The translations under genes were made by a program, and so were the position numbers. Below the pieces are notes generated by a model. That model had not been told where the DNA came from, made no database searches, and was given only the letters and a program-made list of their open reading frames with translations. Of a stretch of DNA of 64,000 nt, positions 15,985-60,474 are shown in pieces (position 1 is the first letter of the stretch; each line of letters starts with the position of its first letter). Source of the DNA: Patescibacteria group bacterium (GTDB lineage: Bacteria > Patescibacteriota > Patescibacteriia > UBA9934); assembly GCA_049296775.1 (NCBI GenBank), contig JBAQTB010000003.1, positions 76,766 through 140,765 of the forward strand, written 5' to 3'.

Positions 15985-16004
15985 TCCGGTCGTTATTCGA
16001 AACT

Positions 16005-26001: not shown

Positions 26002-26257
26002 GGCACTCGGTACTAGGAAGCTTTGCGCTCGGGAGTCTTGGACCTTTGGTCCTTGGCTCCCGTCCGCGAAATGGTGAAGACACTGGTTGAACCGACGTCT
26101 CTAAGACACCCAGAAAATACTAGCCCAAACAGTGGGCAGTATTCTCCTCCGGGTGTCTTTTCTTTTTCTCTAATCTTCATTTAGCGACGGGCGCCCTGTT
26201 TACTAAAAGCCGTAATCGACCTAGACTTAGACTAACTAACCCATTAACTAAGAGCTT

Positions 26258-33734: not shown

Positions 33735-34292
33735 GTGCCTATGGATTCCGGTTTGACGGATGAGGATTTGGTGTTACAGGCACTTAAGCACAAAGAAGCA
33801 TTTCGTGGCTTGGTTGAGAGGTATCAGCACAAGCTCATGAGATATATTTTTAGAATTGGTGGCAAAGATGCGAGTGAGGACTTGTTGCAGGAGGTTTTTA
33901 TTAATGTTTATCAAAACTTAGCAGGCTTTGATAGAAGCTTGTCTTTTTCGGCCTGGATATATCGGATTACCCATAATGTGGTAATCAGTTATTATCGTAA
34001 GCAGAAAGTGCGACCAGAGGGGAATCTGCACCAAGACGGGGAGGAGATCTTGGCCAGAGTCTACGGCGAGGATGACGTGGAGCGGGCAGCGGATCTGCAG
34101 CTAGATACGGAGCGCTTGAATGAGGTGCTTAAAAAGTTGAAGCCACTTTACAGAGATGTCCTGGTGCTGCGCTACTTTGAACAGCTAGAGTACCAGGAGA
34201 TCTCTGACGTGTTGCGGATACCTATGGGGTCAGTAGCGGTGTACTTGCATAGAGCCAAGAAGCAACTCAAGGACTTGTATGACAAACGATAA
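33735..34292 (+). CDS. ECF-type RNA polymerase sigma factor (sigma-70 regions 2 and 4)
   Basis: Region 2 WIYRITHNVVISYYRK and region 4 LRYFEQLEYQEISDVL...VAVYLHRAKKQL. Confidence 0.75.
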   Translation: MPMDSGLTDEDLVLQALKHKEAFRGLVERYQHKLMRYIFRIGGKDASEDLLQEVFINVYQNLAGFDRSLSFSAWIYRITHNVVISYYRKQKVRPEGNLHQDGEEILARVYGEDDVERAADLQLDTERLNEVLKKLKPLYRDVLVLRYFEQLEYQEISDVLRIPMGSVAVYLHRAKKQLKDLYDKR

Positions 34293-48144: not shown

Positions 48145-48243
48145 AACAATTTTGCTTATAGTGTAATCTATCTTTCCCTAGCCACACAATTGTATAAAAA
48201 AGCACCGTCAGGGACGGTGCAGGAAGAGCTCTGATGTTTTGGA

Positions 48244-48891
48244 TTACCGGCCGACGCTGGCCAGTAACTCTTTGTGACTCGGCACGGGTAGATGCGTCCA
48301 CACGGCGTAGTCAGGCGTGAGCCCTTGTGCTCGTGTCAGAAGCCGGCGGACCAGGCTGGGCCGCAACCCGGGATTGAGGTGCAGCAGCGCAGCTGTAAAC
48401 AATTTCTCAGCTTGTAAATATTTGCCGTCCGGATCATCTGTTTGAATGTAGTGCCGGCGGCTGAGTTCTTCATGTTCGTAGGGAGCGCCTCTGTGGGCAC
48501 GGCGACCACAGGATTGCATGGGACCAAAATTCCAGATGATACGCGTGCCGCGTTCCACAGATCGGCAGACGTGTTTGGCTGCGTAGAACGCGGTGTGGGT
48601 GTCTTTAGGCCCGAGATCGATGAGCCAATCCGCTTGGTCCTTTTTTGACTCAGTGGCGTGATATTCGCCGTGTGTCACGTCGAGATTGACGTAGGCGTAC
48701 GGGGAGTAGAGCCTGGATGGGCCCGTGTAGGGCATGAGCCAGGTTTGTCGCCAAACACTGCGGTCTGGCTCAGACTCGAGCAACTGGTCGATACGGAGTA
48801 CCTCGCCCGTGAAGCCGGTACGATTGTCGATGTATGGCACCAGGATGCCACGTCGTGTAGTCAGCTCCCTGCGGAGTCGGTCGAAGATCAT
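48244..48891 (-). CDS. Hypothetical protein (high GC, about 58%)
   Basis: ORF only. A hairpin terminator (gcaccgtcagggacggtgc) lies at about 48196..48222. Confidence 0.35.
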   Translation of the reverse strand: MIFDRLRRELTTRRGILVPYIDNRTGFTGEVLRIDQLLESEPDRSVWRQTWLMPYTGPSRLYSPYAYVNLDVTHGEYHATESKKDQADWLIDLGPKDTHTAFYAAKHVCRSVERGTRIIWNFGPMQSCGRRAHRGAPYEHEELSRRHYIQTDDPDGKYLQAEKLFTAALLHLNPGLRPSLVRRLLTRAQGLTPDYAVWTHLPVPSHKELLASVGR

Positions 48892-49063
48892 TTTTTGCTC
48901 CTTTCAAAGGTCGTAAATACGACTCAGCAGCTTAGGCGAGGACAGCCTGTTTGTCAATTGATTTACAAGTTGCAAAAAATATGTCAGCCTTGACGGGCTT
49001 AGTTGATTTAATCGGGGGTGATTGGATCTTGACTGAGTAGTGTTTGTTGAGAGGGGGTGAGGG

Positions 49064-49324
49064 GTGAACTCTGAGCAGTATGTAGCTCCACGTAGCCCAG
49101 AGGAGGCCGTGGAATGGTATAAGCAGCTGTTGCTAAAGATGGAGGCTGACGAGCCTTCTTGGCAGAAATTCGTCAATTGCGAACTCGAGGGGGATCACGT
49201 GAGAGCTGCGCGGGTCTTGAGACAGCTCAGACTTGTCTCGCGCAACGCGGAGACCGAGACGTGTCAGTTTCTGATTTGGGCTCGAGCATCCGTGCGCGCT
49301 AACGGTACCTCCTACCTGGAGTAA
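49064..49324 (+). CDS. Hypothetical small protein
   Basis: ORF followed by a strong terminator at 49337..49378 (ccggtgacgtaactcttacgtcaccgg + T7). Confidence 0.3.
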   Translation: MNSEQYVAPRSPEEAVEWYKQLLLKMEADEPSWQKFVNCELEGDHVRAARVLRQLRLVSRNAETETCQFLIWARASVRANGTSYLE

Positions 49325-49336
49325 ACCGTCCGACTG

Positions 49337-49378
49337 GCCGGTGACGTAACTCTTACGTCACCGGTCGTTTCTTTTTTT
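49337..49378 (+). terminator. Rho-independent terminator
   Basis: Perfect 11-bp stem plus a poly-T tail. Confidence 0.7.
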
Positions 49379-49434
49379 AGTAAAATTTACAAAATGAAAC
49401 CACCAGGCGGACCTGGTGGCTAGACACGGGGGAG

Positions 49435-49902
49435 TCAAACTCGGCCGTGTTTGAAATAGTGCGCCATGCGCCTGATGTTTTCGGCAAACTTGGGACGATC
49501 TCTGGTTTCGTATTCATCCCACTTGGGGTAGCGTGTGACGAAGCCCCAAAGAGGGTGGCCAGTGTCTTTGGTTAGTGACACGCTCTCGTGATGAATGAAC
49601 GTTGGCTGGGCATTGGTATACCTCTCCAGCGTGCATTCGATTTCGATTGTGCTGTTCAGCGGCACGGTGTCAGGGACATGCTCCGTTAGCTCGATGCTGA
49701 TCGAGGTTTCGTCTGGGTCACTCGTATCGATGACCCAGCGGAGACACAAGTGCGCATTCACCATCTGGTACAGGGTGACGCGGTTCTTGCCGTCGTCCTT
49801 CACCAGTTGGCAAGCTGACGTTGTGTCGATCCCGGCTTGGACCAGGATTAGTTTGATCGCATCAACGAGCTCCCTGGCATCATTGTGTAGGGTATCATCC
49901 AT
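49435..49902 (-). CDS. Hypothetical protein
   Basis: ORF with a CCAGGAGGAATTC RBS. Preceded by leader-element copy B. Confidence 0.35.
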   Translation of the reverse strand: MDDTLHNDARELVDAIKLILVQAGIDTTSACQLVKDDGKNRVTLYQMVNAHLCLRWVIDTSDPDETSISIELTEHVPDTVPLNSTIEIECTLERYTNAQPTFIHHESVSLTKDTGHPLWGFVTRYPKWDEYETRDRPKFAENIRRMAHYFKHGRV

Positions 49903-49990
49903 GAATTCCTCCTGGCGTAATTGCCGATCAGTTATCGACTAATCAGCTTACAAAGACTTACGGCATGTGTCAATCAGTGGGTAGTTATTG

Positions 49991-50120
49991 GAGATTAAAG
50001 AGAAAAGAAGAAAGATTAAGGTGGTGACGAGCCTGATATCACGGTCCTTCGGTATTCACCTCAGGATGGTGAGTGCGATAAGGTGAAGAGATTAAAGAGG
50101 AAAGTCGAAAGATTAAAGTC
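49991..50120 (-). promoter_or_regulatory. Conserved leader element copy B (contains two tandem CT-rich core motifs, B1 49991..50021 and B2 50085..50120)
   Basis: The reverse complement of 49991..50072 matches 10157..10267, with 22/22 identity in the first hairpin and about 50 nt in the core. It is oriented toward the minus-strand gene starting at 49902. Confidence 0.5.
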
Positions 50121-50224
50121 GGACCATCCCGGGGCTACTACCTTGTCCTGTGAGAAGTTGAGGTGGTTTTTGCCTTAATTTTAGTGTAAACTTACTCAGG
50201 AATTGAGTTAATCTGTCTAAGACT

Positions 50225-50494
50225 GTGGAGTTGCATATGATTGAGTCAGAAACCCTGCGATCATTCCTTGGATACCTGCCTGTTCAACAGAGGAGCTGGA
50301 CTGTGATCATGTTAGAGCAATACCCAGAACTTCAGGCTGAATTTATCCAGAATGTCTTGGCAAAAATGGGGGCGTTACAAAGTGACAATCGTCAAGACTT
50401 GCAAACCTTGCAAAAGTCAGAGGCTAAGAAGTTGCAAGCCTTTGTTGATGAGTTGGCCAAGACTGAGCATCGCTTAAAACTGGCAAGTTTATGA
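50225..50494 (+). CDS. Hypothetical small protein
   Basis: ORF with an ATGA overlap to the next gene. Confidence 0.3.
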   Translation: MELHMIESETLRSFLGYLPVQQRSWTVIMLEQYPELQAEFIQNVLAKMGALQSDNRQDLQTLQKSEAKKLQAFVDELAKTEHRLKLASL

Positions 50495-52020
50495 TTTCCC
50501 CTGAAATGTACCGTGATTCGGCGGTTGATCGTGTGTCTGTAGCACCGACGGTTGAAACGCCGGTCCCAGTTGAGTCGGAGGGGGAGATTGGGGATTTGGT
50601 TAAAGAGTTGTTAGCGACTGAGGCAGGCTTTTCCGCTGCAGCTAAGGACGGTGTGTGGTCTTTTATGAAGGCCATGCGGGAGATGGGCGGGGAGGTGTTG
50701 CCAGATGCAACCAAAGCGGCTTTGTTTGGAATTTTACTCATGGGTTCAGAAACTGCCATTGCAGCCGAGATTGTTGGTGAGCCAGCAGATTCAACTGAGA
50801 TTGAGCAAGCGTTTGAGAATAGCGCCGCCCACGAGATGTCTCCAGAGTTACGCCGTCAGTTGGGGGAGATAATTCAAGCTGGCACCAGGATAAGATTGGT
50901 CAAACAGAGCGGTGACCGCCAAGATATTCAGATAAATTCTGTTGCCGACCTTGAAGCGGTGACCGGATTTGAGATTGATAGTAGTTCATGGATTGAATTC
51001 GTGACTGCCGACGATAATTACGACCCTTTGAATGATACGCGTAATTGGGAAGGCTGGGAGGAGCGAGAATTAGATGCAGGCAGTTACATTGGGTCTAAGA
51101 CAGCAGTTGATGAGTCTGGAGCAAGGGTCGAAGTTTATAGGAAAATTGGCAAATTTTACGGTTCTGACCAGTTTAGATTCATGCAAACTGTTATAGTGCA
51201 TCCGGAAATAGTTTTTGCATTACCCGGTGCAAGTGCCGAAACCCAATTAAGCGCGGATCTAACTGACTTTGGACTAGGCAAATTGGAAAACTTGGCGACA
51301 TACCAGGGCTTTGAAGCAATTGCAGATTTGGACGGAACGTATGTTTATACTGACGGTCAATATGAGGGTGAGTACACTGAATTACTTGAACCGTATACCA
51401 ATTCAATAGCGGCGGGTATCAGACATTCAACCGAGTTGTTTGGTTTGCAGCCAGATATTGTAAAAGAGATTTTTGTTCAAGATAGTATTGAGCGTAATGC
51501 TGCGGCACTTATTAGCGATACGGCTCCGGTGCTTATTTTTAATGATGAATTATTTAAGGCTTCAGCTGGATCTAAGATTGGTGATCCGGAGTATGGATTG
51601 CTGTCGATTCAAATTCAACAAGTCGCTGAACATGAAACCTTTCATGCGGTTGACGGCTTTATTGGTTTATCAAAAGATAAAGGTTGGCAAGAGGCATTCT
51701 ACGTTCTCTCCTCTGAGTATTTAAAGAGTGTGAGTGAATCTAATAGGGGAGGTATCGGCGGCCATGCTCAAGACAATCCCTATGAGTTTACGGCTTCACT
51801 TCTGAATGTTATTGATTGCAAGGATGAGGCTTGGATTACCGAGACGCAGCGGATGACAGATGAAGAAATTGTACTGTTTAAATACGCTTTGAGCGCGATG
51901 AGAGGCGCATTAAACAATAATCCCGCTGTTGGTGAAGATGCTCCAGTCAAGCGGCTTGTAAATGACCGGCTAGATTACATGCTCACTCTATCAACGAAAT
52001 ATGATCAAGTCTCTCCGTAG
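50491..52020 (+). CDS. Hypothetical protein with HExxH motif (possible zinc metallopeptidase)
   Basis: QQVAEHETFHAVDGF. There is no other recognisable domain. Confidence 0.35.
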   Translation: MISPEMYRDSAVDRVSVAPTVETPVPVESEGEIGDLVKELLATEAGFSAAAKDGVWSFMKAMREMGGEVLPDATKAALFGILLMGSETAIAAEIVGEPADSTEIEQAFENSAAHEMSPELRRQLGEIIQAGTRIRLVKQSGDRQDIQINSVADLEAVTGFEIDSSSWIEFVTADDNYDPLNDTRNWEGWEERELDAGSYIGSKTAVDESGARVEVYRKIGKFYGSDQFRFMQTVIVHPEIVFALPGASAETQLSADLTDFGLGKLENLATYQGFEAIADLDGTYVYTDGQYEGEYTELLEPYTNSIAAGIRHSTELFGLQPDIVKEIFVQDSIERNAAALISDTAPVLIFNDELFKASAGSKIGDPEYGLLSIQIQQVAEHETFHAVDGFIGLSKDKGWQEAFYVLSSEYLKSVSESNRGGIGGHAQDNPYEFTASLLNVIDCKDEAWITETQRMTDEEIVLFKYALSAMRGALNNNPAVGEDAPVKRLVNDRLDYMLTLSTKYDQVSP

Positions 52021-52053
52021 GCTTGTAATTATCTTTATTCTCTACAAATAAAA

Positions 52054-52135
52054 CAAAAAGCACCTGTACGGCAGTGAGCAGATGCTCTTTGCCACGCAGG
52101 TGCGTGAGGGGGTCTAGACGTCGGTCGGTGGTTTT
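52054..52135 (-). repeat. Terminator-hairpin repeat, family variant 1 (copy 1)
   Basis: aaaaagcacctgtacggcagtgagcagatgctctttgccacgcaggtgcgtgagggggtctagacgtcggtcgg is about 80 nt identical to 53074..53150. It overlaps the stop of the minus gene 52114..52329. Confidence 0.7.
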
Positions 52136-52329
52136 TTCAGCATGTGAATGTAGGACTGGCCGCCCATGAGCATTCCCCATGAGAAGGCAACCATTACGAG
52201 AAGCAGGGTGTACATCCATTTTTCCAGGATGGTTTCGCTGTACACAGCAGTCGTCGCCGTGGAGATCACTTGGACTGGTAGTAGGATTACGATCATCACC
52301 CACATTAGGATGCTATCTATATCCTTCAC
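52114..52329 (-). CDS. Small membrane protein (71 aa)
   Basis: Two TM helices. The C-terminal codons (KKPPTDV*) lie inside the repeat. Confidence 0.35.
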   Translation of the reverse strand: MKDIDSILMWVMIVILLPVQVISTATTAVYSETILEKWMYTLLLVMVAFSWGMLMGGQSYIHMLKKPPTDV

Positions 52330-52627
52330 GTTTACCTCCTAAGAGTGAGTTCAGTAGAGCGTTTCGAGCTCCACCATACGAATCCTGACAATAAAACATT
52401 CAGGACGTGTCACTATAGCATAAAACATGTCTTTGTCAATATAGAAACCCGAGGCTCCCATAGCGCACCTGAGTGCGGATAATGCTATGATTTGGGTATT
52501 AAGGAGAGTTATTTAGCTTGACAAAGACAGAAATTTTGCTATCTTTAGTTATATTCAGGAGAGTCACGTAAACCTTATCATTGAGACATTGTAAAGTTTA
52601 CGGGGTTCTTCTTCCCCGGGAGTAGTC

Positions 52628-52969
52628 ATGCGATTTATTGCGACGCTGTTCGTGGTCGTCGGCTGCGTCAAGCATGCCGATAGGATCGATCCGTACAAGG
52701 ATCTCTTTGTAGCCGTCACTGACGAGCCTGAGGTGAGCACGGCACCGACGGAAGCCGTCGATGATGCCGAGTCCGCGCCGGTCAGTCAAGACCAGACCGA
52801 GTACGGCGATTGCGACACCACGGTGATGCTGCCCGCAGATAACGCCGAGACTGAGGGTCTCGATGACTGCGGTTCCGGGCCGTACATCAGGCCTGCTGGT
52901 GACATGACCGCAAGACAGAAACGTAAAAGGCGCGATTCTTACAGAGACCTCTGGGTGAATATCCAGTAG
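52628..52969 (+). CDS. Putative lipoprotein, acidic
   Basis: LFVVVGC lipobox-like. About 58% GC. Confidence 0.35.
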   Translation: MRFIATLFVVVGCVKHADRIDPYKDLFVAVTDEPEVSTAPTEAVDDAESAPVSQDQTEYGDCDTTVMLPADNAETEGLDDCGSGPYIRPAGDMTARQKRKRRDSYRDLWVNIQ

Positions 52970-53073
52970 CCTACGAGCGCAACCTGCACCCGCGCGAGTC
53001 CAAGGAACACATTACTGTGTCTCCCAAAACTCGCCGGGTGCGTTTTTTATTTACACTTGATTTATTGTTGTTA

Positions 53074-53150
53074 AACAAAAAGCACCTGTACGGCAGTGAG
53101 CAGATGCTCTTTGCCACGCAGGTGCGTGAGGGGGTCTAGACGTCGGTCGG
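53074..53150 (-). repeat. Terminator-hairpin repeat, family variant 1 (copy 2)
   Basis: Near-identical to 52054..52135. It lies 30 nt downstream of the stop of 53185..53574. Confidence 0.7.
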
Positions 53151-53184
53151 CGGCGGTTGTACGCGCACGTTCGCTTATGGTCGA

Positions 53185-53574
53185 TCAGCGTTGCCACGTA
53201 TTACAGAAGATATTTGAACTCGCACAGACGAGTATGAGCGAGCGCTCATCGTAGGTGCCGATGTAGGTCAGCTCGCCGTCGCCAGTGCTGACTGCGTCGA
53301 AGACCTTGTACGCGGGGTAGTCCTTATGACGACAGTAGGCCAACTCGCGCAGCTCCTCAGGGTAGTCGTGAAGGCGACAATAGGCCGACTGGCGAGTGTC
53401 TACGATCAAGCATGGCTGGTAGCCCGATTCGTAGATGCCCTGACAAGTTTCCTTGTCCCCGTGCCATTGTTCCGAGACCATCTCAGCGCACACCTCTCTG
53501 GGGCTGTACCACAAGCCACCAAAGATACACGAGCCACAGCAGATAATGAAAATGCCAATGATCCACTTTTCCAT
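53185..53574 (-). CDS. Cys-rich small secreted protein (10 Cys)
   Basis: N-terminal hydrophobic signal, then C-x-C patterns. Confidence 0.4.
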   Translation of the reverse strand: MEKWIIGIFIICCGSCIFGGLWYSPREVCAEMVSEQWHGDKETCQGIYESGYQPCLIVDTRQSAYCRLHDYPEELRELAYCRHKDYPAYKVFDAVSTGDGELTYIGTYDERSLILVCASSNIFCNTWQR

Positions 53575-53733
53575 GAAACCTCCAATGGTGGGGTTGTGAA
53601 GAGCGACGTAAATGACGCCGTTCGACCAGGCAACGTACTCTTAGGTTTAGATTTTGTCAATGTTTACGTAGTGCCGTCAAAAAGAAAAGGGCCGCAACGG
53701 TGAGGTAGCGGCCCAGAGAGCTCCGTTAGAAGC

Positions 53734-54369
53734 TTAGGTAGACTGGCGTGCGCGGAACTCGCGTCCTTTGCCGAGGTCCATGTTGATTGGGATATTTTGC
53801 TCACAGAGCGGGCACGTGGATTCGTCGTAAGTGACGAGTTGCATGTTCAAGAGGGCGATGAGTTTGGGGACATCGGCCACGTCTGACGGCGTGACGTCTC
53901 CGCGGTTACACAGCACACCGAGACCGACGACGTGGCCACCGATGGCGCGTGTAGCTTCAATCACTTTTTTGGCGGAGCCGCCGGTGGTCAGGATATCCTC
54001 TACCACCAACACATTTTTGCCGGCGATGAGCTGGTCGTAGCCGCGCTTGATAATAAACGTTTTGCCATCTTCGGCTTTTTCGGCGTAGACCGCCAGGACT
54101 CGGTGGCCCAACATCTCGGTGAGGTGATGAGCTGTCCATTGGGACAGAATGACGCCACCAATAGCCGGTGCAATAACCACTTGCACCCGGTCGTCGGCGA
54201 ACTGTTCGGCGATGGCGCGGCAGAGCAGGGATGTTTCCTCGATATGAGGATAAATCGCGTCTTTGTTGACGTATGACGTACCGTGCCGGCCTGACGTGTA
54301 AACAATGTGGTCGCCCACAGTGAATGCACCAACTTTGCCAAGAATCTCCGTGACCTCGTGCTCAAGCAT
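53734..54369 (-). CDS. Type-I phosphoribosyltransferase, orotate-PRTase-like, with C-terminal CxxC extension
   Basis: PRPP-binding motif VLVVEDILTTGGSA. N-terminal FTVGDHIVYTSGRHGTSYVNK resembles the PyrE FTLKSGRKSPYFFN. C-terminal DESTCPLCEQN. Confidence 0.55.
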   Translation of the reverse strand: MLEHEVTEILGKVGAFTVGDHIVYTSGRHGTSYVNKDAIYPHIEETSLLCRAIAEQFADDRVQVVIAPAIGGVILSQWTAHHLTEMLGHRVLAVYAEKAEDGKTFIIKRGYDQLIAGKNVLVVEDILTTGGSAKKVIEATRAIGGHVVGLGVLCNRGDVTPSDVADVPKLIALLNMQLVTYDESTCPLCEQNIPINMDLGKGREFRARQST

Positions 54370-54487
54370 GACGTACCTCCGGTGTTGTCAACTCTAACAT
54401 TTAGATAAGAGGGAGGCGATTTTACAAAATCAAATCCAAAGCGTCAATGCTGAATAATTTACCATCGCGGTCAATTAAAACTTGTCA

Positions 54488-54555
54488 TAAAAAAAGAGCG
54501 CGTCCCATCGGTAGGCAGCCGAGGGACGGCTTGCTCTTGATGGTGACGCGCGAGA
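54488..54555 (-). repeat. Terminator-hairpin repeat, divergent family member
   Basis: aaaaaaagagcgcgtcccatcggtaggcagccgagggacggcttgctcttgatggtgacgcgcgag shares the A-run/GCGC stem/(t)cgg/ctctt/GCGCGAG architecture. Confidence 0.5.
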
Positions 54556-54557
54556 GT

Positions 54558-54812
54558 TCAATCGTTTGTCTTTGCGTAGCTACCGAGGATCATCATGGTT
54601 GAGAGAAATGACAGATGTGCTGCTGCGATGATTGTGAGTGGCTTGTTTGCGATAGACGAAGCGATCACGAACACGATGAGCGCAGCCACAGCACCGCTGA
54701 TACTCAATACCAATTTAATGAACCCGTGATTCATGCTGACTCCTTGAAAGTCGTACGAATTTGTTACGTAAGTGCAGCAATTCGACCGTGTAACGTATCC
54801 GCAAATTAGCAT
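54558..54812 (-). CDS. Small membrane protein (84 aa)
   Basis: Two TM helices. Confidence 0.3.
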   Translation of the reverse strand: MLICGYVTRSNCCTYVTNSYDFQGVSMNHGFIKLVLSISGAVAALIVFVIASSIANKPLTIIAAAHLSFLSTMMILGSYAKTND

Positions 54813-54910
54813 TTCGTCAATAGTTGCAAAATAGGTGTTGTGGAGTTTGTATAAACAACAAAACTGACCGCATGGGGCGGTCAGTTTTGAGGTATCTATT
54901 TGAAGATCGA

Positions 54911-55504
54911 TTAGAATGTTTTTAGATCAAAATTCAGTGTACGGAAGATTTGTAGCGCAGTTTCTTGCTCTGAAGCGGTGAGGTTACTACCGGATAATGA
55001 GAGTCGCTTGAGCTTTTGAATGCCAGAGATAAAAATCCCTGTTGCTCCATCGCCTGTAACTTTAGGGACAAATATTTTTGCAGTGTAACCGTTGATGATC
55101 TCGTCGGTGACGATATAGTTAGGGTTATCGTCTCCTGGAAATGAACTGGAATACATACCGTAATCAAACCTTAGACTGACGCCGTTGCCGACGAATTCGC
55201 CTACTTGTGAATCGTAGCCTTGTAGCGCATTGAATTTCCATCCAGGTGGTAATGAGACTCTGAAGACGCCAGTATCAATTATCTGCCAGCTAGTTGGCGT
55301 GGGGGAGTCATCCGAAGGAACGGTTGTAGTATCAGGTGTAGTTGGGATGTTTTCTGTGTCCTGATCAACCACGGGTACATTTGTATCCGTCACGACTGAC
55401 GATCGATCTGCCTGCTTTTGCCATACATAAATACCGCCAATTATAATAAGGGCAGTGATAGCAGCCGCTAGGACGATTTTTGACGTCTGTGATTGCATAA
55501 TCAA
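54911..55504 (-). CDS. Membrane-anchored/secreted hypothetical protein
   Basis: An N-terminal TM segment. A bidirectional hairpin terminator lies at 54858..54890. Confidence 0.4.
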   Translation of the reverse strand: MIMQSQTSKIVLAAAITALIIIGGIYVWQKQADRSSVVTDTNVPVVDQDTENIPTTPDTTTVPSDDSPTPTSWQIIDTGVFRVSLPPGWKFNALQGYDSQVGEFVGNGVSLRFDYGMYSSSFPGDDNPNYIVTDEIINGYTAKIFVPKVTGDGATGIFISGIQKLKRLSLSGSNLTASEQETALQIFRTLNFDLKTF

Positions 55505-55626
55505 GCTAATTAGGACTCAATTGAGCCTCTAAATTCTTACACCAAAATTGCCATTTTGTCAACACAAAATAGCCAAAAATAGCCAAAAATAGCTGTAAAT
55601 AGTGGTATTTTAGTGGGATAATTTTT

Positions 55627-55684
55627 AAAAAAAACGCACTCTACGGAACGCAAGCCGGATTGGCTCTTGTCCCGCGAGTGCGCT
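55627..55684 (-). repeat. Terminator-hairpin repeat, family variant 2 (copy 1, core only)
   Basis: aaaaaaaacgcactctacggaacgcaagccggattggctcttgtcccgcgagtgcgc ends 3 nt before the stop of 55687..56520. Confidence 0.7.
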
Positions 55685-55686
55685 AG

Positions 55687-56520
55687 TTAGTGGTCGAATA
55701 GACCGTCGGCGATGGAGATGTATGACTGCATCGCGTCGACGTCGATGCGGTCCTCGGGGGCTGGGGTCCTAAGACGACCCTCCGCGTCGAGGCTCAGGTT
55801 GGGAAACTTCTCGGCGAGCGGTCGGATGTCTTTCATGCCTTCGTGTGACAGTCCGCCCGCGACCCCAATGCCGAGGTCAGTGTGCCGACCACCGATGGCT
55901 CGTACGTATGCTTCGGCGATTTCGACGTCCATCGGGATGCCGAGTCCGCCGCTCGCATCGATGAGGACGTCGGTGATGTATGGTTTGTACCAGTCGAGTT
56001 CTTTGGCCACGCGCTCGGGGTTGTTGTCATGCACCTCTAATGCCTTGCGGTTGAGTTGGAGCACGACCCGCATGCGCTTCCCGATGTCAATGCGGCTTGG
56101 CTCGGGCCACGTCACGTTGAGCTGGAAGCCGTCGAGGTAGCGTCCGCCGAGATCCATGAGCTGGTCGAGTTGCTCGGGCAGGGTGTGGTAGTCGTCGCTG
56201 GCGTAGTGGATGAGGTTGACGGTCCGCCGGTGTGGTGGGAATAGTCCTACGATGTCGAAAACATTGGGGTAGCGATTGGGCCATTTGTTGGTCTCGCCGC
56301 GCAGCGTCTTACTGCTCGCCAGCACACCGACCATGAGTACTCGCGTGCTCCAGTTCGGCAGATCGTCGAGAGAGGCAAGCGCCGCCGCGACCTCCTTCTT
56401 TGTCATGAAACCTGTAACACCAATGTACGGCGACATTACAACCCCTTGAGGACGATGGGATATCGTCACTCTGTCGTAAAAACGACTTTGTATATTAACA
56501 ATCAAATATGCTTTTGTCAA
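55687..56520 (-). CDS. TIM-barrel enzyme with phosphoribosylanthranilate-isomerase (TrpF)-like motifs (tentative)
   Basis: LIDASGGLGIPMD and GIGVAGGLSHEGM resemble the TrpF LLDxxxGGSGxxFDW and LAGGLxxxN motifs. This is weak. Confidence 0.3.
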   Translation of the reverse strand: MTKAYLIVNIQSRFYDRVTISHRPQGVVMSPYIGVTGFMTKKEVAAALASLDDLPNWSTRVLMVGVLASSKTLRGETNKWPNRYPNVFDIVGLFPPHRRTVNLIHYASDDYHTLPEQLDQLMDLGGRYLDGFQLNVTWPEPSRIDIGKRMRVVLQLNRKALEVHDNNPERVAKELDWYKPYITDVLIDASGGLGIPMDVEIAEAYVRAIGGRHTDLGIGVAGGLSHEGMKDIRPLAEKFPNLSLDAEGRLRTPAPEDRIDVDAMQSYISIADGLFDH

Positions 56521-56574
56521 GGATTATATGGTAAAAATATGCGTAAATACCGATATTAAGGAATGATAAACCTG

Positions 56575-56675
56575 CTAAAAACAAAAACGCACTCTACGGA
56601 ACGCAAGCCAGATTGGCTCTTGTTCCGCGAGTGCGCGAGGGGGGTGTTACAGGGAGGGGCCGTCATCGGGGCCGA
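56575..56675 (-). repeat. Terminator-hairpin repeat, family variant 2 (copy 2, core + 45-nt extension)
   Basis: About 95 nt are identical (2 mismatches) to 57848..57945. The extension is read out of frame by 56663..57241. Confidence 0.75.
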
Positions 56676-57241
56676 GCTCGTGCGTCCTCGACGTAGTCGG
56701 TGATAAGCCATACTTCGGTGTCGACCGTGATGCGCCGGTAGGAGACGCTCTCCGACGCCTCGGGATTCGAGACGAACATGTCCTGGTCCCATCGACGAAC
56801 GCGCTCGACCACCTGGACGATCGAGCGCTCGCCATCCCGTTCGATGCTCACGATCTCGAGCTCGCCATCAACGCGAGAAGATCCGCCCCGCTCAGCGTAG
56901 TGCTGGCGGACTCGCGCAATCGCCTCGGGGTCGTCCTCGATGAGGAGAAACTCGGTCGTCGGCCAGATGCCATCCACGAAGTAATCGGCGTAGGCGTCGA
57001 CATCTCCCGTCTCAATGGCTGAGTACTTCGCAGTCACGACGTCTTGAAGGAAACGGCCTTCCGGGGTGCGGCCAAGCTCGTCAGCGTCACCGGGGACGAT
57101 TTGTGACCGTGACATAAGGTTTGAGCAACCAGTGAGGAGGGCGATAGTGGCGAGTAAGATGATCCCTAATCGGAACAAGCTCAGCCTTTGTGTGAGGATG
57201 TTGTAAGACACACCATTCCTTTGTTTCATGAATAAGAGCAT
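56663..57241 (-). CDS. Lipoprotein, hypothetical (3' end inside the repeat; possible frameshifted tail)
   Basis: Lipobox LLTGCS. It ends ...ARPR* within the repeat, whereas the paralogous repeat copy encodes ...ELGPDDGPSL* in another frame. Confidence 0.4.
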   Translation of the reverse strand: MLLFMKQRNGVSYNILTQRLSLFRLGIILLATIALLTGCSNLMSRSQIVPGDADELGRTPEGRFLQDVVTAKYSAIETGDVDAYADYFVDGIWPTTEFLLIEDDPEAIARVRQHYAERGGSSRVDGELEIVSIERDGERSIVQVVERVRRWDQDMFVSNPEASESVSYRRITVDTEVWLITDYVEDARARPR

Positions 57242-57847
57242 ATCTATTACTTACAGTAGTGATCATGCAGGTTGATTCGTTGTGTAGTTAGCTTTATGCT
57301 CCATTTCTAGGTTTTCGGCTTGAATCGTTCATTTCGACAGTCTACGCCTACACATAGTGGCATGCAAGTACCCGCGACATTCACTCATACCAATAAAATA
57401 AAGGTGCTAGCAGAGTTAAACAGATAAATTAAATGACCACCCCGATGGGATGGTCACACGTGGCGCTTGTGCGCCTAACTTTGTGGCGGATTATTCGTGT
57501 CGATCGACTGCTTCCACAGATACCCTGCGACATAGCCTTGTAGAGTGATGGACGCCAAGAGCATGAGTAAGAAAGGCCATTGTATCGTTTGGTTTAGCGA
57601 ATTATGCAGAATGGTAATCACAATCGACGTGGAGAGGATTTTCGCGAGGAAAGATGGTGTCTGCAAGGGGCCTCCCTGGTTTGGTTTCCAAGGGGGCGTG
57701 CCCCTCGCTTCCGAGGCTCTTGGACAAGCCAAGCGCTGCGAAGGCGAGGGCACCATCAAAGTCGAACATTTATGGTACTTGATGGGTTTGGGATTGTCAA
57801 GGCTAAATGGCCTAAATTAGGTGTAAATAGTTGGTTTTAGCGAATAA

Positions 57848-57945
57848 AGAAAAACGCACTCTATGGAACGCAAGCCAGATTGGCTCTTGTTCCGCGAGTG
57901 CGCGAGGGGGGTGTTACAGGGAGGGGCCGTCATCGGGGCCGAGTT
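57848..57945 (-). repeat. Terminator-hairpin repeat, family variant 2 (copy 3, core + extension)
   Basis: The extension encodes the in-frame C-terminal tail ELGPDDGPSL* of 57914..58336. Confidence 0.75.
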
Positions 57946-58336
57946 CGTAACGCTCGATGCGTCTTACGAGTGTGATGGGCGCTTCAATGCCGTCGACGTC
58001 GATGGCGAAGAAGGTACAGCCTTCGTGTCCGATCAGTACGTTGAAACGTGGCCATTGTCCATTTTTCGGTGCCGTGTGATTGAGGAGAGTGGTGTTAAGA
58101 CACTCCGTGTTCCAAGAAACTCGGTAGCCAACTTGGAATGGTCTGTCGGTCTTGGCCTCAAAGACGATCACCGTTTTCCAGCCCCACCACCGCAGCCACA
58201 GATGGTTCCACCACCGTGTCGGAGGCACGGTGCGGTCACCCTCCGCGGTGTAGCCTCGGCATAAAGTACTAAACTCTCGTTTTTTCCACACCGGATCCTC
58301 CGCAAGGGCAGCAAAACGCCGCCACTCTATCGCCAA
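57914..58336 (-). CDS. Hypothetical Trp-rich protein with repeat-encoded C-terminal tail
   Basis: ORF. Its last 10 codons lie within the repeat. Confidence 0.35.
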   Translation of the reverse strand: MAIEWRRFAALAEDPVWKKREFSTLCRGYTAEGDRTVPPTRWWNHLWLRWWGWKTVIVFEAKTDRPFQVGYRVSWNTECLNTTLLNHTAPKNGQWPRFNVLIGHEGCTFFAIDVDGIEAPITLVRRIERYELGPDDGPSL

Positions 58337-58491
58337 CGCGACAGATCAAAATATCACAAAATTATCCCGCTGTCAAAGCAGGAAGGTGCAATTTGATGGG
58401 AATTGCAACACATAGACGCGTGGAGGTCTTTTTGTTAATCTTGTTTGGCGATGTCTGAAAGAGCCGTATTACACCAACCCACGAGGATTCC

Positions 58492-58833
58492 ATGACGCTT
58501 GATACTTTAGATCAGCTCAAGGTCGCTGTTAGAGGCGTCCTCATGAATGCTCCTAACGTCAATACCGCTCGGAACTGGATCCGAGCCTTGCCTGGCCCAC
58601 CACTCAGTTCATTGCCGGAAGGAGCGCCTGCGCCTCGGGGCATGTACTTCGATCTCGTTGGAGAGATCACCGTTCGCTTCAATGAAGACGGTTCCCGTGA
58701 AGCCGTATTCACCATGATTACGGAACCTGATGATCCGAGTCCGCAACTTATAAGTGTCCGGTGGGAACCTATTCCTGGTTTCCTGACTCCGGAACAAACC
58801 ATAGTGGTGAGAGAGGCACTCTTCGGAAGGTGA
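58492..58833 (+). CDS. Hypothetical protein
   Basis: ORF followed by a hairpin terminator at 58868..58925. Confidence 0.3.
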   Translation: MTLDTLDQLKVAVRGVLMNAPNVNTARNWIRALPGPPLSSLPEGAPAPRGMYFDLVGEITVRFNEDGSREAVFTMITEPDDPSPQLISVRWEPIPGFLTPEQTIVVREALFGR

Positions 58834-58947
58834 TACGGCGTCAGTGTTGATCTGTGATTCTTTCCTCGCCCCGTGCGAACGACAAGCCCCCACTACTGGG
58901 AGCGTCTGTCGTTCTCAGCACGGGGTTTTTGTCTATATTCACAATAT

Positions 58948-59015
58948 AAAAAAAGAGCGCATCTGAACGGCAAGTGAGCAGATGGCTCTTTGCCGCGCAG
59001 ATGCGCGAGCGGTGC
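58948..59015 (-). repeat. Terminator-hairpin repeat, variant 1-like (copy 3)
   Basis: aaaaaaagagcgcatctgaacggcaagtgagcagatggctctttgccgcgcagatgcgcgagcggtg is homologous to variant 1. It contains the stop of 59015..59512. Confidence 0.65.
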
Positions 59016-59512
59016 TACTTGGTGGCAACGTAGCAGTTGAGAACGCTCTGGAAGGCGTTCGAATCATCGTATGTTTTGCGGTTCTCTGTATCGACGCCAT
59101 CGACGCGGTCTATCGTGCCGTCCGCGCTCTCATCGATCATTGTGACCGTGAAATGCCTGTCGAGTCCTTGCCGCTCGACCCCCACCATCGTCGCGAAGAC
59201 GACGAGGGTCTGGCTGCCCGAGGGGTTCAACCGAAGGAGGACTTCGGTGCCAATGAAGGCAAGGGTCGGACAGGTGACCTGCGCGCGAAAGGTCTGGGTT
59301 CCGCCGTCGGCGTCGGAGGGCGCGGTCTGCTGGAGAAGAAACACCGCCTTTTTCGCTGCTGCGTCGGCGGGGATGGCGGGCTCGGAAGCGACTGCGGTGG
59401 AGGAAAGGGTCAGAAAAAAGGCGCAGATGAACGGAACGAACATTGGAACTCCTGTGAGGAAGGCAAGATGCCATTCGACTAATAAAATACCAAAAAATAG
59501 TCCTTTTGTCAA
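59015..59512 (-). CDS. Secreted hypothetical protein
   Basis: Has a signal peptide. A consensus promoter lies upstream (TTGACA-17-TATTTT). Confidence 0.4.
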   Translation of the reverse strand: MTKGLFFGILLVEWHLAFLTGVPMFVPFICAFFLTLSSTAVASEPAIPADAAAKKAVFLLQQTAPSDADGGTQTFRAQVTCPTLAFIGTEVLLRLNPSGSQTLVVFATMVGVERQGLDRHFTVTMIDESADGTIDRVDGVDTENRKTYDDSNAFQSVLNCYVATK

Positions 59513-59540
59513 GGCAAAATCGTCTAAAATACAGGTTTTT

Positions 59541-59568
59541 TGTGACTTTACCGGGAATCAACTCCGGC
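59541..59568 (-). repeat. Degenerate copy of the tRNA-Glu 3' half (possible att-site remnant)
   Basis: tttgtgactttaccgggaatcaactccggc against the tRNA region ttggtgacctcaccgggaatcgaacccgga gives 21/30 ungapped identity. The core gtgacNtNaccgggaatc matches 16/18. Confidence 0.35.
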
Positions 59569-59636
59569 TTTTGGGTCGATGTTATTTCTCGTTGATATAA
59601 TTTGGCTAATATAGGCCAATAATATGCGTATTTACC

Positions 59637-59665
59637 TTGACAAAAGGGTATTTTTCTGCTATGAT
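59637..59665 (+). promoter_or_regulatory. Sigma-70 consensus promoter (TTGACA - 17 nt - TATGAT)
   Basis: ttgacaaaagggtatttttctgctatgat lies 25 nt upstream of the ATG at 59690. The same TTGACAAAAG extended -35 recurs upstream of other island genes. Confidence 0.55.
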
Positions 59666-59689
59666 ATGTCGTTACCATGAAGCTCTCAG

Positions 59690-60121
59690 ATGAGCCCTGT
59701 AATCCCCATTTTCTTAGAAAGTGATGGTTACTGGTCTCATCTGTCTTACCCCCACACCACGGAGCGAATCATGGAACAGCCCCTTTGCCCCTGCGACAAG
59801 TGTCGTACCAGCGTCACCCCCGACAACGACGCCCTCGCGCTCGACCTCATGATGAAGAAGATGGCCAAGTACGGCTTCGACTTCAAGGAGGAGGAGCTGG
59901 ACGAGGAGGGACGGTGGATGAACACCGCGTGGCTGGCCCACGGGTCGCGTCACCTCCTCCCCGTCATGGACGGCGAGGAGGTGGTCTGTGCGGGCTCTCC
60001 CAGCCGCGCCCAGTACATTGAAGGTCAGCCGCGCGACGAACGCGGCTTCATCTACGACTCCTCCCGTGAAGTCCTCCATCGCGCGGCCTACGCCCGCATC
60101 CAGAGCAACACCAATTCGTAG
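59690..60121 (+). CDS. Hypothetical protein (about 62% GC)
   Basis: ORF with a strong promoter. Several overlapping alternative-frame ORFs here are artefacts of the high GC content. Confidence 0.35.
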   Translation: MSPVIPIFLESDGYWSHLSYPHTTERIMEQPLCPCDKCRTSVTPDNDALALDLMMKKMAKYGFDFKEEELDEEGRWMNTAWLAHGSRHLLPVMDGEEVVCAGSPSRAQYIEGQPRDERGFIYDSSREVLHRAAYARIQSNTNS

Positions 60122-60281
60122 CCGAAGCGCATCGGCGCGGCCACGCCTTCAACGTTCAATCGTTGTGGAGAGCGTAGCCCGTCGGTGCGCTCTTTGTTTT
60201 GAACACATTGTTTATTTCGAACCACTAAACCGGCGCTTATCTTACAAACAAAAACAACCCTCCACGAGGGAGAGTTGTCTT

Positions 60282-60356
60282 TGGTGACCTCACCGGGAAT
60301 CGAACCCGGATTTAAGGCTTGAGAAGCCTCTGTCCTAACCGTTAGACGATGAGGCC
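60282..60356 (-). tRNA. tRNA-Glu (anticodon CUC)
   Basis: The reverse complement folds as a cloverleaf: acceptor GGCCTCA/TGAGGTC, D-arm GTC...GAC, anticodon stem GAGGC/GCCTT with loop TTCTCAA, T-arm CCGGG-TTCGATT-CCCGG, and an encoded CCA. Confidence 0.8.
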
Positions 60357-60474
60357 AGACTAAACTGGCAAATGAGTGTTGGCTAGCTATGAACGTCAGG
60401 ATAATAGCAAACACTTTTGGTTTAGTCAAAGGCCAGGAGTCGTGAATCTGTCACTAATTCTGTGTGAGTAGGGC

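Follow-up and report, generated by a model that had tools for sequence, protein, structure and literature searches.

Next to the 3′ end of tRNA-Glu(CUC), this Candidatus Uhrbacteria chromosome (Patescibacteria/CPR, a tiny genome) carries a plasticity zone composed of autonomous, mostly single-gene transcription units; the zone is neither a classical integrase island nor an integron. We studied it in a window of 64,000 nucleotides and compared it with related loci, given below as L numbers. By sequence comparison, the tRNA-Glu 3′ side is a lineage-variable hotspot: its genes differ from lineage to lineage and are for the most part GC3-rich. We lean toward a history in which this ~12-kb zone turns over through repeated gene acquisition at the tRNA site combined with recombination between promoter and terminator modules; the zone is in part consistent with serial insertion. 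The locus is an unusually tidy instance of an already known kind of genomic hotspot.

Conserved blocks flank the zone, ABC-GlmS-ArfB on one side and DUF3298-M17 peptidase on the other. L003, the only reasonably close genome to span the whole locus, has the same flanks, entirely different ORFs beside its tRNA-Glu, and a tRNA-plus-zone block that is inverted relative to the window. Because DNA nonsyntenic with the closest relative begins directly after ArfB (~48148), the zone extends over ~48.15-60.28 kb (~12.1 kb). The left edge that the sequence-only reading had drawn after the ORF at 50491..52020 is thus arbitrary, and its 52030-60281 segment is the tRNA-proximal two-thirds of a larger zone. 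With L003 as the sole such genome, no breakpoint of gain or loss was directly seen at a module boundary. In Logan, this organism is independently assembled with an identical gene order, and the breaks in that assembly fall exactly at the T1 repeats described below. The ~13 small proteins reported for the segment correspond to ~13 small ORFs between 52.1 and 60.1 kb, and the description of most as secreted proteins, lipoproteins or 2-TM proteins agrees with TM, signal-peptide or lipobox features in 8 of 13. All promoters and terminators listed here and below are sequence predictions.

48148..52029, no strand: left part of the zone, outside the segment first described; five ORFs without counterpart in L003 (48244-48891, minus; 49064-49324, plus; 49435-49902, minus; 50225-50494, plus; 50491-52020, plus), three of them GC3-rich
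52045..52439, minus: i01 unit; promoter 52439->52412, 2-TM ORF 52114-52329, its last 5 codons and TAG stop provided by T1a copy 1 (52045-52131)
52518..53058, plus: i02 unit; promoter 52518-52545, lipoprotein (lipobox) ORF 52628-52969, terminator 52978-53058
53185..53574, minus: i03; 129 aa, 10 Cys, N-terminal hydrophobic segment; promoter 53680->53651
53734..54369, minus: i04; OPRTase-like phosphoribosyltransferase, CPLC tail; promoter 54447->54419, terminator 53668-53715
54485..54737, minus: i05 and its terminator; 58-aa 2-TM micro-protein 54558-54734, terminator 54485-54558
54911..55504, minus: i06; membrane-anchored, N-terminal hydrophobic segment, normal GC; promoter 55562->55533, terminator 54859-54889
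55687..56439, minus: i07; predicted TrpF-like TIM barrel; promoter 56520->56492, terminator T1d
56663..57241, minus: i08; lipoprotein, lipobox LTGC; last codons and stop within the T1b repeat
57433..57800, minus: i09 unit; promoter 57800->57772, doubtful 94-aa ORF 57475-57759 with 1 TM segment, terminator 57433-57457
57914..58336, minus: i10; 140 aa; promoter 58376->58348
58492..58833, plus: i11; 113 aa, cytoplasmic, not GC3-rich
59015..59443, minus: i12; secreted, signal peptide (N-terminal hydrophobic segment), GC3 0.77; promoter 59512->59484
59690..60121, plus: i13; 143 aa, GC3 0.81

Three proteins singled out earlier hold up. The Cys-rich 129-aa secreted protein is i03; i04, read as an OPRTase-like PRTase with a CxxC tail, matches Pfam PF00156, PDB OPRTases and, below the curated cutoff, TIGR01367 (E=1.8e-36); and the AlphaFold2 model of i07 (pLDDT 94; target-normalised TM-score 0.75-0.78 against 1v5x and 1nsj) identifies a TIM barrel, closest to TrpF. 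The i07 family is conserved in Patescibacteria (393 members), and the orthologues in L083 and L085 retain the same neighborhood, the GC-rich composition and the terminator; from these comparisons, i07 appears to be an old resident of the neighborhood, not a recent arrival. The proposal that related genomes would distinguish an island from a native hypervariable region, the latter carrying the same genes with the same composition, gives a divided answer: the different ORFs of L003 fit a lineage-variable hotspot, and one cassette, i07, shared with two relatives, speaks in part against an island. For its part, i10 has a single homolog among 5.8 billion proteins (49% identity), which sits in another cassette array (L088). 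The i13 family comprises 214 cluster representatives, one of them in an integron-like array of an unrelated GC-rich genome, which marks i13 as a gene of a mobile pool. Homology of i13 spans residues 28-142, and Met28 may be the true start.

The claim that nearly every gene has its own consensus promoter is borne out: sigma-70-like promoters number 22 in 50-62 kb vs 11.6 +/- 2.9 in shuffles, matches at 10 or more of 12 positions number 12 there vs 6 in the other 52 kb (mostly TTGACA with an extended -10), and a promoter-like match lies directly upstream of 11/13 ORFs. Likewise, a stable hairpin with a T-run follows every ORF (13/13), with dG from -16 to -37 kcal/mol and z from -3 to -7.5 at the 11 sites folded. 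The further claim of a single repeat family does not stand, as a covariance model of the T1 family (covariation at 8/14 base pairs) finds just 7 strong copies, within the window restricted to the zone, and scores the i05, i13 and i02 terminators only weakly; T2 behind i11 and the plain hairpins after i04, i06 and i09 are unlike T1. With near-consensus extended -10 promoters and unusually long compound terminators, neighboring units would be transcriptionally insulated. The module features are as follows.

52045-52131, minus: T1a copy 1, ends i01; 81-nt repeat part 52051-52131
53067..53153, minus: T1a copy 2, within the 81-nt repeat (D2), 99% identical to 52051-52131
55621..55690, minus: T1d, i07 terminator; kept with compensatory changes behind the i07 orthologs in L083 and L085
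56574..56681, minus: T1b repeat and terminator, second copy; covers 56579-56681
57841..57948, minus: T1b terminator and last 35 coding nt of i10; 103-nt repeat (D1), 97% identical to 56579-56681
58866..58940, plus: T2 compound terminator of i11; two further copies in L003 and one in L088, behind unrelated ORFs
58944..59013, minus: T1c, i12 terminator
59595..59665, plus: i13 promoter module; palindrome TTGGCTAATATAGGCCAA, then TTGACA-17-TGnTATGAT; common to L003 and L082
60122..60205, plus: T3 compound terminator of i13; 89-97% identical in L003, L082 and L085, behind unrelated ORFs
60401..60429, minus: tRNA promoter, TTGACT-17-TGnTATTAT, in the style of the cassette promoters

D1 and D2 run into ORF 3′ ends, in different reading frames (i08 vs i10 for T1b). 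T2, T3 and the promoter of i13 show 83-97% identity across L003, L082, L085 and L088, whereas the ORFs that they flank lack detectable similarity; where one promoter-terminator pair recurs from genome to genome, the enclosed ORFs measure 143, 97, 84 and 115 aa. Modules held in common around unrelated ORFs point to recombination on the modules, not to integrase-mediated stacking.

Base composition had been put at about 58-62% GC across the region, which is an overstatement: the mean of 52030-60281 is 0.521 vs 0.473 for 1-48147, GC of 0.58-0.65 is confined to 300-nt windows inside some ORFs, and intergenic DNA is at 0.38-0.44. Most zone ORFs are GC3-rich relative to same-strand core genes (i06 and i11 are not GC-rich), the excess holds on both strands after allowing for the strand skew of the genome, and the G3 depletion of resident minus-strand genes is absent from minus-strand island genes. 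Because the i07 orthologs stay GC-rich in hosts of 48-53% GC, however, GC3 richness need not imply recent transfer.

At the right end, the zone does extend from the 3′ end of the tRNA gene, as described, and the degenerate copy of the tRNA 3′ half reported inside it is real, matching 25/32 bases at 59540-59571, whereas the best matches in 30 shuffles of 60 kb reached 18-22.

59535..59571, minus: degenerate tRNA copy, 0.74 kb inside; last 32 nt of the tRNA and 5 nt of trailer, direct orientation
60195..60246, no strand: empty attB-like site, core TCGAAC 60217-60222; predicted target of the relatives' elements
60240..60281, minus: tRNA trailer with intrinsic terminator; conservation extends to L003, L082 and L116-L119, also at loci with tRNA Glu(UUC)
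60282..60356, minus: tRNA-Glu(CUC); ARAGORN, Rfam tRNA 63.5 bits; 3′ end toward the variable zone

In four other samples, a ~3-kb large-serine-recombinase element occupies the TCGAAC core, which lies ~60 nt downstream of the tRNA 3′ end, and L116 carries two in tandem, a literal serial insertion. The conserved genes of the elements number three, and cassettes of the window type are absent from them; their recombinases (505-528 aa) share the Pfam domains Resolvase, Recombinase and Zn_ribbon_recom, and a 125-nt relic of the recombinase gene 3′ end is found in L003, L082 and L119. Window homology to every recombinase-bearing locus ends at 60214, and the two L082 junctions rebuild the window sequence; the tRNA-Glu trailer of the window is, as predicted from these junctions, an unoccupied docking site for the ~3-kb elements. 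The picture of classical tRNA-side integration accordingly changes in both respects: the recombinases of the relatives are serine, not tyrosine, enzymes, and they target the trailer instead of the 3′ half of the tRNA.

Four other explanations have to be weighed against turnover by acquisition and module recombination. A native, vertically inherited hypervariable locus, in which fast-evolving surface or secreted genes owe their GC3, promoters and terminators to high expression and not to foreign origin, would account for the i07 family with its retained neighborhood, GC richness and T1 terminator, for a tRNA promoter in cassette style, and for promoter and terminator modules conserved across genomes. 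We consider it rather unlikely given same-module ORFs that differ in length and lack similarity, the near-orphan i10, an i13 family member inside an integron-like array elsewhere, and the missing G3 depletion on the minus strand. A classical island, in which at least one tyrosine-integrase element entered the tRNA-Glu 3′ half, regenerated the tRNA, displaced a 3′ fragment and later lost its integrase, is also unlikely. The locus resembles Islander-type tDNA islands, which are marked by a tyrosine integrase, a regenerated tRNA and a displaced fragment (PMC4383910), in its intact tRNA and in a direct repeat of the tRNA 3′ end, far above shuffles, inside adjoining DNA of atypical ORF composition on the tRNA 3′ side. 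Yet the repeat encloses only 0.71 kb, a single-gene unit whose tRNA-proximal part (trailer, terminator and T3) is common to L003, L082 and L085, and other tRNA fragments are absent from the window, L003 and L082. The earlier observation that no integrase is present agrees with our search, in which no integrase, recombinase or transposase was Pfam-detectable among window ORFs of at least 150 aa; no tyrosine integrase was found among the called genes of L083, L085-L087 and L116-L119, with L003 and L082 incompletely screened, and the recombinases that do occur at the locus are serine enzymes acting outside the tRNA.

The hairpins themselves could be the active agents, as REPIN/MITE-like mobile hairpins, functional 3′-UTR RNAs or protein-binding sites that have spread to, or been selected at, gene ends. 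Such activity would fit module identity (84-97%) above that of neighboring coding DNA (66-80%), the invariant T3 apical loop, the ends that T1 and T3 have in common, and near-identical window copies that overwrite ORF 3′ ends; conserved gene-end hairpins able to terminate, with near-identical copies in one genome, are also features of REP/REPIN and Correia-type elements. Unlike those, the window copies are clustered at one locus, always point the same way as the upstream gene and run into a T-run, like plain terminators; no copies occur in the remaining 52 kb of the window or across 1.3 Mb from other Uhrbacteria loci, IMG/VR gives no match, and no RAYT or other transposase was found, so that we regard this explanation as improbable. 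Most improbable is an integron-type array without integrase (CALIN), with the hairpins as attC sites. In its favor, the accessory genes are small and mostly orphan, behind each of them an imperfect palindrome begins at the stop codon, and a homolog of i13 forms one cassette of an array whose repeats are attC-like; but the window genes lie on both strands and largely have promoters of their own, the repeats are intrinsic terminators ending in T-runs without R″/R′ boxes, a model derived from the repeats of L120 detects no attC-like signal in the window or its relatives, and no IntI-like protein was found.

Returning to acquisition and module recombination, we posit that foreign or pool-derived genes have entered time and again at a permissive site next to the tRNA; that the short conserved promoter and terminator modules would then recombine or undergo gene conversion with one another, so that ORFs are swapped, duplicated or re-terminated; and that recombinase elements may arrive and leave, occasionally inverting the block. 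The pseudo-tRNA fragment would then be the scar of one older tRNA-targeted event, and at least one unit, i07, probably a long-standing resident. The suggested serial site-specific insertion is real in the L116 tandem, but site-specific stacking of the 13 genes is not demonstrated because we found no recombinase, recombinase relic or further att-like scar inside the zone of the window.

Among known systems, tycheposon islands in Prochlorococcus offer a close comparison: in the report on them (bioRxiv 10.1101/2020.12.28.424599), islands lie beside tRNA genes of a streamlined genome, repeated integration at one site drives older material deeper and leaves degraded remnants and partial tRNAs, and a minority of elements use large serine recombinases. 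The likeness lies in single and tandem recombinase elements at the relatives' tRNA-Glu trailer, the recombinase relic and the partial tRNA of the window; the differences are a window without element or integrase fragment, a docking site in the tRNA trailer and not in the tRNA, elements of just ~3 kb with three conserved genes, and the layout of one gene, one promoter and one terminator with shared terminator modules, a feature of the window not found in the passages of that report consulted. The relatives' recombinases share their domain set, a defined junction and a short common core with phiC31/Bxb1-type elements, of which the window holds only the empty target; set against those elements, the recombinase ORF at all five loci (5/5) continues past the junction and runs antisense to the tRNA trailer.

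Between ABC-GlmS-ArfB genes on the left and a DUF3298-M17 peptidase block on the right, about 12.1 kb of variable DNA lies on the 3' side of tRNA-Glu(CUC), whose 3' end points left (ARAGORN and Rfam). Comparison with related genomes shows this zone to be a tRNA-adjacent, lineage-variable set of predicted insulated single-gene units whose promoter and terminator modules are shared within and between genomes. We regard the locus as a variant of a tRNA-linked plasticity island; the sequence-only reading, which described a high-GC island of single-gene cassettes built by serial site-specific insertion, is confirmed in part as an observation and supported in part as an interpretation. The features discussed below are:

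48148-60281, variable zone
52030-60281, the part of the zone singled out as an island by the sequence-only reading, with small ORFs i01 to i13
53734-54369, minus strand, i04, OPRTase-like PRTase
55687-56439, minus strand, i07, predicted TIM barrel
57914-58336, minus strand, i10
58492-58833, plus strand, i11
59540-59571, tRNA-like repeat, direct orientation
59690-60121, plus strand, i13
60217-60222, TCGAAC core of the putative empty attB
60282-60356, minus strand, tRNA-Glu(CUC)
62114-63607, M17 peptidase gene

The 13 small ORFs span 52.1-60.1 kb, three of them plus-strand and ten minus-strand, and a simple hydrophobicity and lipobox analysis predicts membrane or export features in eight of them, in line with the earlier description of about 13 small, mostly secreted, lipoprotein or two-TM proteins. 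The GC content of 58-62% that had been assigned to the island does not describe the region overall, which averages 0.521 (0.473 in 1-48147); since 300-nt windows give 0.58-0.65 inside i02, i04, i07, i08, i12 and i13 and 0.38-0.44 between genes, the figure is true of ORF interiors only. Island GC3 is 0.62-0.81, with i06 and i11 as exceptions, against 0.47-0.60 in core genes. An apparent C-specific codon bias, considered as a sign of translational selection, is an artefact: the island genes compared were minus-strand and the core genes mostly plus-strand, in a genome with a strong third-position asymmetry (plus-strand core genes are G3-/T3-rich, minus-strand core genes C3-rich); once this skew is allowed for, both C3 and G3 are raised in island genes of either strand. 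Across the whole window, G3/(G3+A3) is ~0.7 and C3/(C3+T3) ~0.4 in plus-strand genes, with the reverse in minus-strand core genes, and the plus-strand GC skew is ~+0.2 throughout and ~0.05 in the zone. Next to the small ORFs, a 509-aa ORF (50491-52020) with an HExxH motif (AEHETFHAV) and no Pfam, NCBIfam or PHROG match overlaps by 4 nt the stop of an 89-aa ORF (50225-50494); the two may form an orphan metalloprotease pair within the variable zone.

The claim that almost every gene has a promoter and a terminator of its own holds up well. A hairpin followed by a T-run, on the ORF's own strand, stands after all 13 ORFs, most of these predicted rho-independent terminators being unusually long three-tier hairpins (-27 to -37 kcal/mol, z-scores -4 to -7.5), and most units carry a TTGACA/TGnTATAAT promoter. 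Scanned for the consensus, 50-62 kb yields 22 promoter-like sites where shuffles give 11.6 +/- 2.9; 12 sites in this interval match at least 10 of 12 positions, mostly with a perfect TTGACA and a TG-extended -10, and the remaining 52 kb of the window contains six matches of that quality, its total counts lying at or below shuffle expectation. Predicted promoters precede i01, i02, i03, i04, i06, i07, i09, i10, i12, i13 and the tRNA. The core part of the window also encodes, at 33735-34292, an ECF-type sigma factor (Sigma70_r2 plus r4_2), which would become relevant if the housekeeping sigma factor does not read the cassette promoters.

The hairpins do not all belong to the single repeat family originally proposed. 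Seven terminators, behind i01, i03, i07, i08, i10 and i12 (both i01/i03 copies counted), form a family, T1, with compensatory changes at 8 of 14 base pairs, and a covariance model built from the copies in the window and in relatives finds T1 nowhere else in the window. The model weakly detects the terminators of i13 (T3), i05 and i02, which have in common the ends CTCGCGCAYC... and ...GGTGCGCTCTTTGTTTT, whereas the i11 terminator (T2) and three simple hairpins are distinct; Rfam recognises only the tRNA, in the region or in relatives. Two T1 repeat pairs are nearly identical (52051-52131 and 53073-53153, 99%; 56579-56681 and 57846-57948, 97%) and reach into coding DNA, where they provide the final codons and stop of i01, of i10 and, in another frame, of i08; at i03 the repeat starts 32 nt past the stop codon. 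The same organism was also assembled independently from short reads (Logan), and that assembly, with 100% identity across 6 kb, has the same gene order; contigs of that sample merely break, exactly at T1 repeats, with no alternative adjacency that would point to structural variants. Outside the zone, two isolated GC3-rich genes without a Pfam match (20174-20959, GC3 0.68; 25312-26001, GC3 0.81) each come after a strong terminator with a -35 hexamer (TTGACA and TTGACT, respectively) immediately behind it, so the cassette style may also occur elsewhere in the genome; the T1 model weakly matches 26097-26171 (E=0.32), a short way past the end of the second gene. Weak T1-model matches in L006, a locus considered as a further cassette region, are ordinary terminators in a normal operon context.

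The M17 peptidase gene matches Candidatus Uhrbacteria and Patescibacteria MAGs, and the best relative spanning the locus, L003 (M17 73% identical), has the order ABC-ABC-GlmS-ArfB, a plus-strand tRNA-Glu(CUC), small ORFs of mosaic GC over 4.4 kb, DUF3298 ... M17. In the window the same flanks enclose the 12.1 kb zone with the tRNA at the opposite end and in the opposite orientation, so the tRNA-plus-variable block is inverted between the two; variable DNA faces the tRNA 3' end in both, and no inverted repeats were found at the junctions of the inverted block. For none of the 18 ORFs in the zone does L003, or any of 79 other M17 loci, contain a homologue.

Variable-zone DNA shared by the window and L003 consists of short non-coding pieces only.

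Non-coding modules shared by the window and L003
tRNA plus terminator: 95% identity
T3: 89% identity
T2 (two copies in L003): 84-88% identity
i13 promoter module: 83% identity

DNA identity between the same two genomes reaches only 66-80% in the flanking core genes, and what interests us most is that the modules surpass core genes in conservation and yet enclose unrelated ORFs. In L082 and L085, T3 is found again at 90-97% identity; CAACGTTCAATCGTTG, its apical sequence, does not vary, and the four ORFs whose stop codons it immediately follows (143, 97, 84 and 115 aa) have no detectable mutual similarity. The promoter module consists of a TGGCT-N-AGCCA-type palindrome, then CCTTGACAAAAGG, then TGnTAT, and is common to L003, L082 and the window as far as the -10 element, beyond which the sequences diverge. 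A shared promoter, a shared T3 and unrelated ORFs together show that the ORF at the i13 position has been replaced while the promoter before it and the terminator behind it were conserved. Cassette ORFs on shared modules have GC3 of 0.67-0.93 across contexts of 48-57% GC. A conserved palindrome, TTGGCTAAYATARGCCA (window 59595-59636; L003 5140-5173; L082 ~349-380), lies 20-40 nt upstream of the -35 element and could be an operator for some regulator. The single homologue of i10 (49% identity) is encoded on a 1.6 kb metagenome contig, L088, which is a cassette array too, with T2- and T1-type terminators and TTGACAAAAGG promoters.

Searching with the trailer and terminator of the tRNA led to one metagenome contig, L082, in which the same trailer lies behind tRNA-Glu(UUC) and which differs from the window by a 3.06 kb insertion encoding a 505/514-aa Resolvase + Recombinase + Zn-ribbon protein and ORFs of 167 and 278 aa. 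Homologues of the recombinase (59-89% identity) occur with the same companion genes in four further samples, L116-L119, the gene abutting tRNA-Glu(UUC) wherever the contig reaches that far. Homology to the window breaks off at 60214 in all recombinase loci, TCGAAC is found at both junctions, and the L082 junctions when joined reproduce window 60195-60246; these matches argue that the window holds an empty attB, its TCGAAC core ~60 nt past the tRNA 3' end, between the tRNA terminator and T3. Because this putative site is present but empty, the window is a target, not a member, of large-serine-recombinase elements. Two different recombinase genes of this class (528 and 505 aa), 3.8 kb apart and in the same orientation in L116 (4601-11518), indicate tandem elements next to tRNA-Glu(UUC), and 125 nt from the 3' end of the first gene persist as a relic in L003 (5252-5391), L082 (128-268) and L119 (1813-1954). 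Relative to the flanking genes, the block of recombinase and tRNA has opposite orientations in L118 and L119.

Serial site-specific insertion, as had been proposed, finds a precedent in the tandem elements of L116, but not in the window's own zone, which holds no recombinase, relic or additional att-like site: tblastn of the recombinase-locus ORFs matched only the shared tRNA trailer in the window, and the best local alignment of the 51-nt attB to 48-60.2 kb scored within the shuffle range. The reported lack of an integrase stands, Pfam detecting no integrase, recombinase or transposase domain in window ORFs of at least 150 aa or in island ORFs, and none of the three being encoded within 7.4 kb past the right end (L001). 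In the integrated elements the recombinase ORF reads across the TCGAAC junction (L082 2455-3999, L116 10001-11518, L118 3991-5529, L119 4383-5900; window counterpart 60218-60319), its last ~35 codons running antisense to trailer, terminator and 3' end of the tRNA, so integrated and excised forms should differ in the recombinase C-terminus. The tRNA-Glu(UUC) (L082 3959-4033, L116 11478-11552, L118 5489-5563) and tRNA-Glu(CUC) genes (window, L003) differ in the tRNA body, and their 3' trailer, terminator and att region are almost identical (window 60240-60356).

A degenerate copy of the tRNA 3' half ~0.7 kb inside the zone is borne out: in 59540-59571, 25 of 32 positions agree with the final 32 nt of the tRNA (31 of 42 with the trailer), against maxima of 18-22 matches in 30 shuffles of 60 kb. 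No further copy of the tRNA 3' end was found in the window, L003 or L082. Lying 742 bp from the tRNA, the repeat encloses the i13 unit alone, one gene rather than the 8-12 kb zone, and the tRNA-proximal part of the enclosed segment (trailer, tRNA terminator, T3) is common to other genomes; the repeat therefore cannot mark the edge of an 8 kb region, and this pseudo-tRNA may be the scar of one older event.

Some products of the zone have families of their own. i04 certainly contains a PRTase domain (Pfam), ends in a CPLC tail and scores 125.6 bits against TIGR01367, under the curated equivalog cutoff of 150.25; by sequence it is best called OPRTase-like, short of membership in the orotate phosphoribosyltransferase family. 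i07 yields a confident TIM-barrel model (pLDDT 94) whose nearest solved folds are TrpF enzymes, yet it has no Pfam or NCBIfam match and its profile finds TrpF in the PDB only at E=0.059, so we describe the modelled protein as TrpF-like in fold, not as a demonstrated TrpF. Its family comprises ~393 Patescibacteria proteins, with orthologues in L083 (79% identity, 4 kb from GlmS) and L085 (67% identity, 4.3 kb from the DUF3298-M17 block); both are GC-rich and carry a T1 terminator with compensatory substitutions, which makes i07, together with T1, an old resident. In L086, a relative of 64% GC, the i07 gene stands in a core ribosomal-protein context with host-typical composition, and a GC-rich lineage is a possible original source of i07. 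Nor is i13 an orphan (214 cluster representatives); one homologue lies in a 24-gene unidirectional array with 44-nt attC-like repeats in a genome of 59% GC. This array (L120 1-12330; GCA_016844925.1, contig JAERTI010000043.1) comprises 24 small same-strand ORFs without a Pfam match, parted by ~44-nt attC-like palindromes (YCTCAACGTAGAGCTCGAG...CTCGAGACCTGCGTTGRGG) with a second small hairpin before each, and is probably an integron or CALIN with unusually short attC sites.

How the zone itself arose can be judged against several known arrangements. A classical island made by a tyrosine integrase at the tRNA would leave an integrase and tRNA copies bounding the insert; the searches recovered no integrase, and the sole tRNA 3' copy bounds one gene. 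Membership in an integron or CALIN is contradicted by hairpins that lack RYYYAAC/GTTRRRY ends and finish in a T-run, by the failure of a model (R2) of the L120 attC-like repeats to match anywhere in the window, and by a layout with 3 of 13 units on the plus strand and 10 on the minus strand, most with a promoter, where integron cassettes are unidirectional and mostly promoterless. REP, REPIN or MITE elements fit poorly with a T1 family confined, within the window, to the zone, and with window ORFs of at least 150 aa among which no transposase was found. A phage or prophage origin is rejected: the only PHROG match is to a generic PRTase, and T1, T2 and T3 are absent from IMG/VR, where 27 matches to a T3 17-mer cover no more than 20 bases each and are regarded as coincidental.

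A native hypervariable region, with the same genes at the same composition in relatives, was the outcome that the sequence-only reading had set against an island, and here the evidence divides: L003 has unrelated ORFs within the same flanks, yet GC-rich i07 orthologues lie nearby in L083 and L085. Purely vertical inheritance is thus partly right for i07 and at odds with unrelated ORFs in identical promoter-terminator sockets. The closest published analogue is the tycheposon-fed tRNA islands of Prochlorococcus, in which, as that preprint outlines them, partial tRNAs and fragments of integrases are left over from serial integration followed by decay (bioRxiv 10.1101/2020.12.28.424599). Compared with the islands so outlined, the likely target here is the trailer and not the tRNA, the elements are very small, the window contains no element remnants, and its organization is strictly modular, with one promoter and one terminator per gene.

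We favor a composite history for the lineage-variable zone, in which genes would have been acquired repeatedly at a permissive site beside the tRNA, recombination or gene conversion on the short modules could swap, duplicate and re-terminate ORFs, and recombinase elements would visit and sometimes invert the block. A bolder proposal, to which we assign little likelihood, is that the promoter and T1/T2/T3 modules of the Uhrbacteria clade are standardized "expression sockets," between whose fixed promoter and terminator unrelated ORFs are exchanged precisely by a dedicated mechanism recognizing the invariant hairpin apical motifs; if true, this would be gene capture analogous to integrons, with each captured gene provided with its own promoter and terminator. 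Patescibacteria (CPR) have tiny genomes and few recognised mobile elements, and their gain of accessory genes is therefore poorly understood. The locus offers a concrete, compact hotspot in which the tRNA-Glu trailer would serve as docking site for small serine-recombinase elements and an array of predicted secreted or membrane micro-proteins comes as insulated transcription units that are each self-sufficient. Were the swapping of ORFs between fixed modules general, it would let small genomes try foreign genes without disturbing neighbours, and the modules would be ready-made expression parts for organisms not yet engineerable.

A second compositional anomaly lies elsewhere in the window. An AT-rich patch at 11000-16000 (GC 0.37-0.39, GC3 0.30-0.38) surrounds a 98-nt tRNA-Ile(TAT) call (13223-13320), holds a 522-aa ORF with Schlafen-type helicase and GIY-YIG matches (14416-15984), and is bordered on its right edge by a DUF2779 ORF of normal GC (15966-17501; 0.49). 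It looks like a second tRNA-linked island, opposite in composition to the zone and possibly defence-related.
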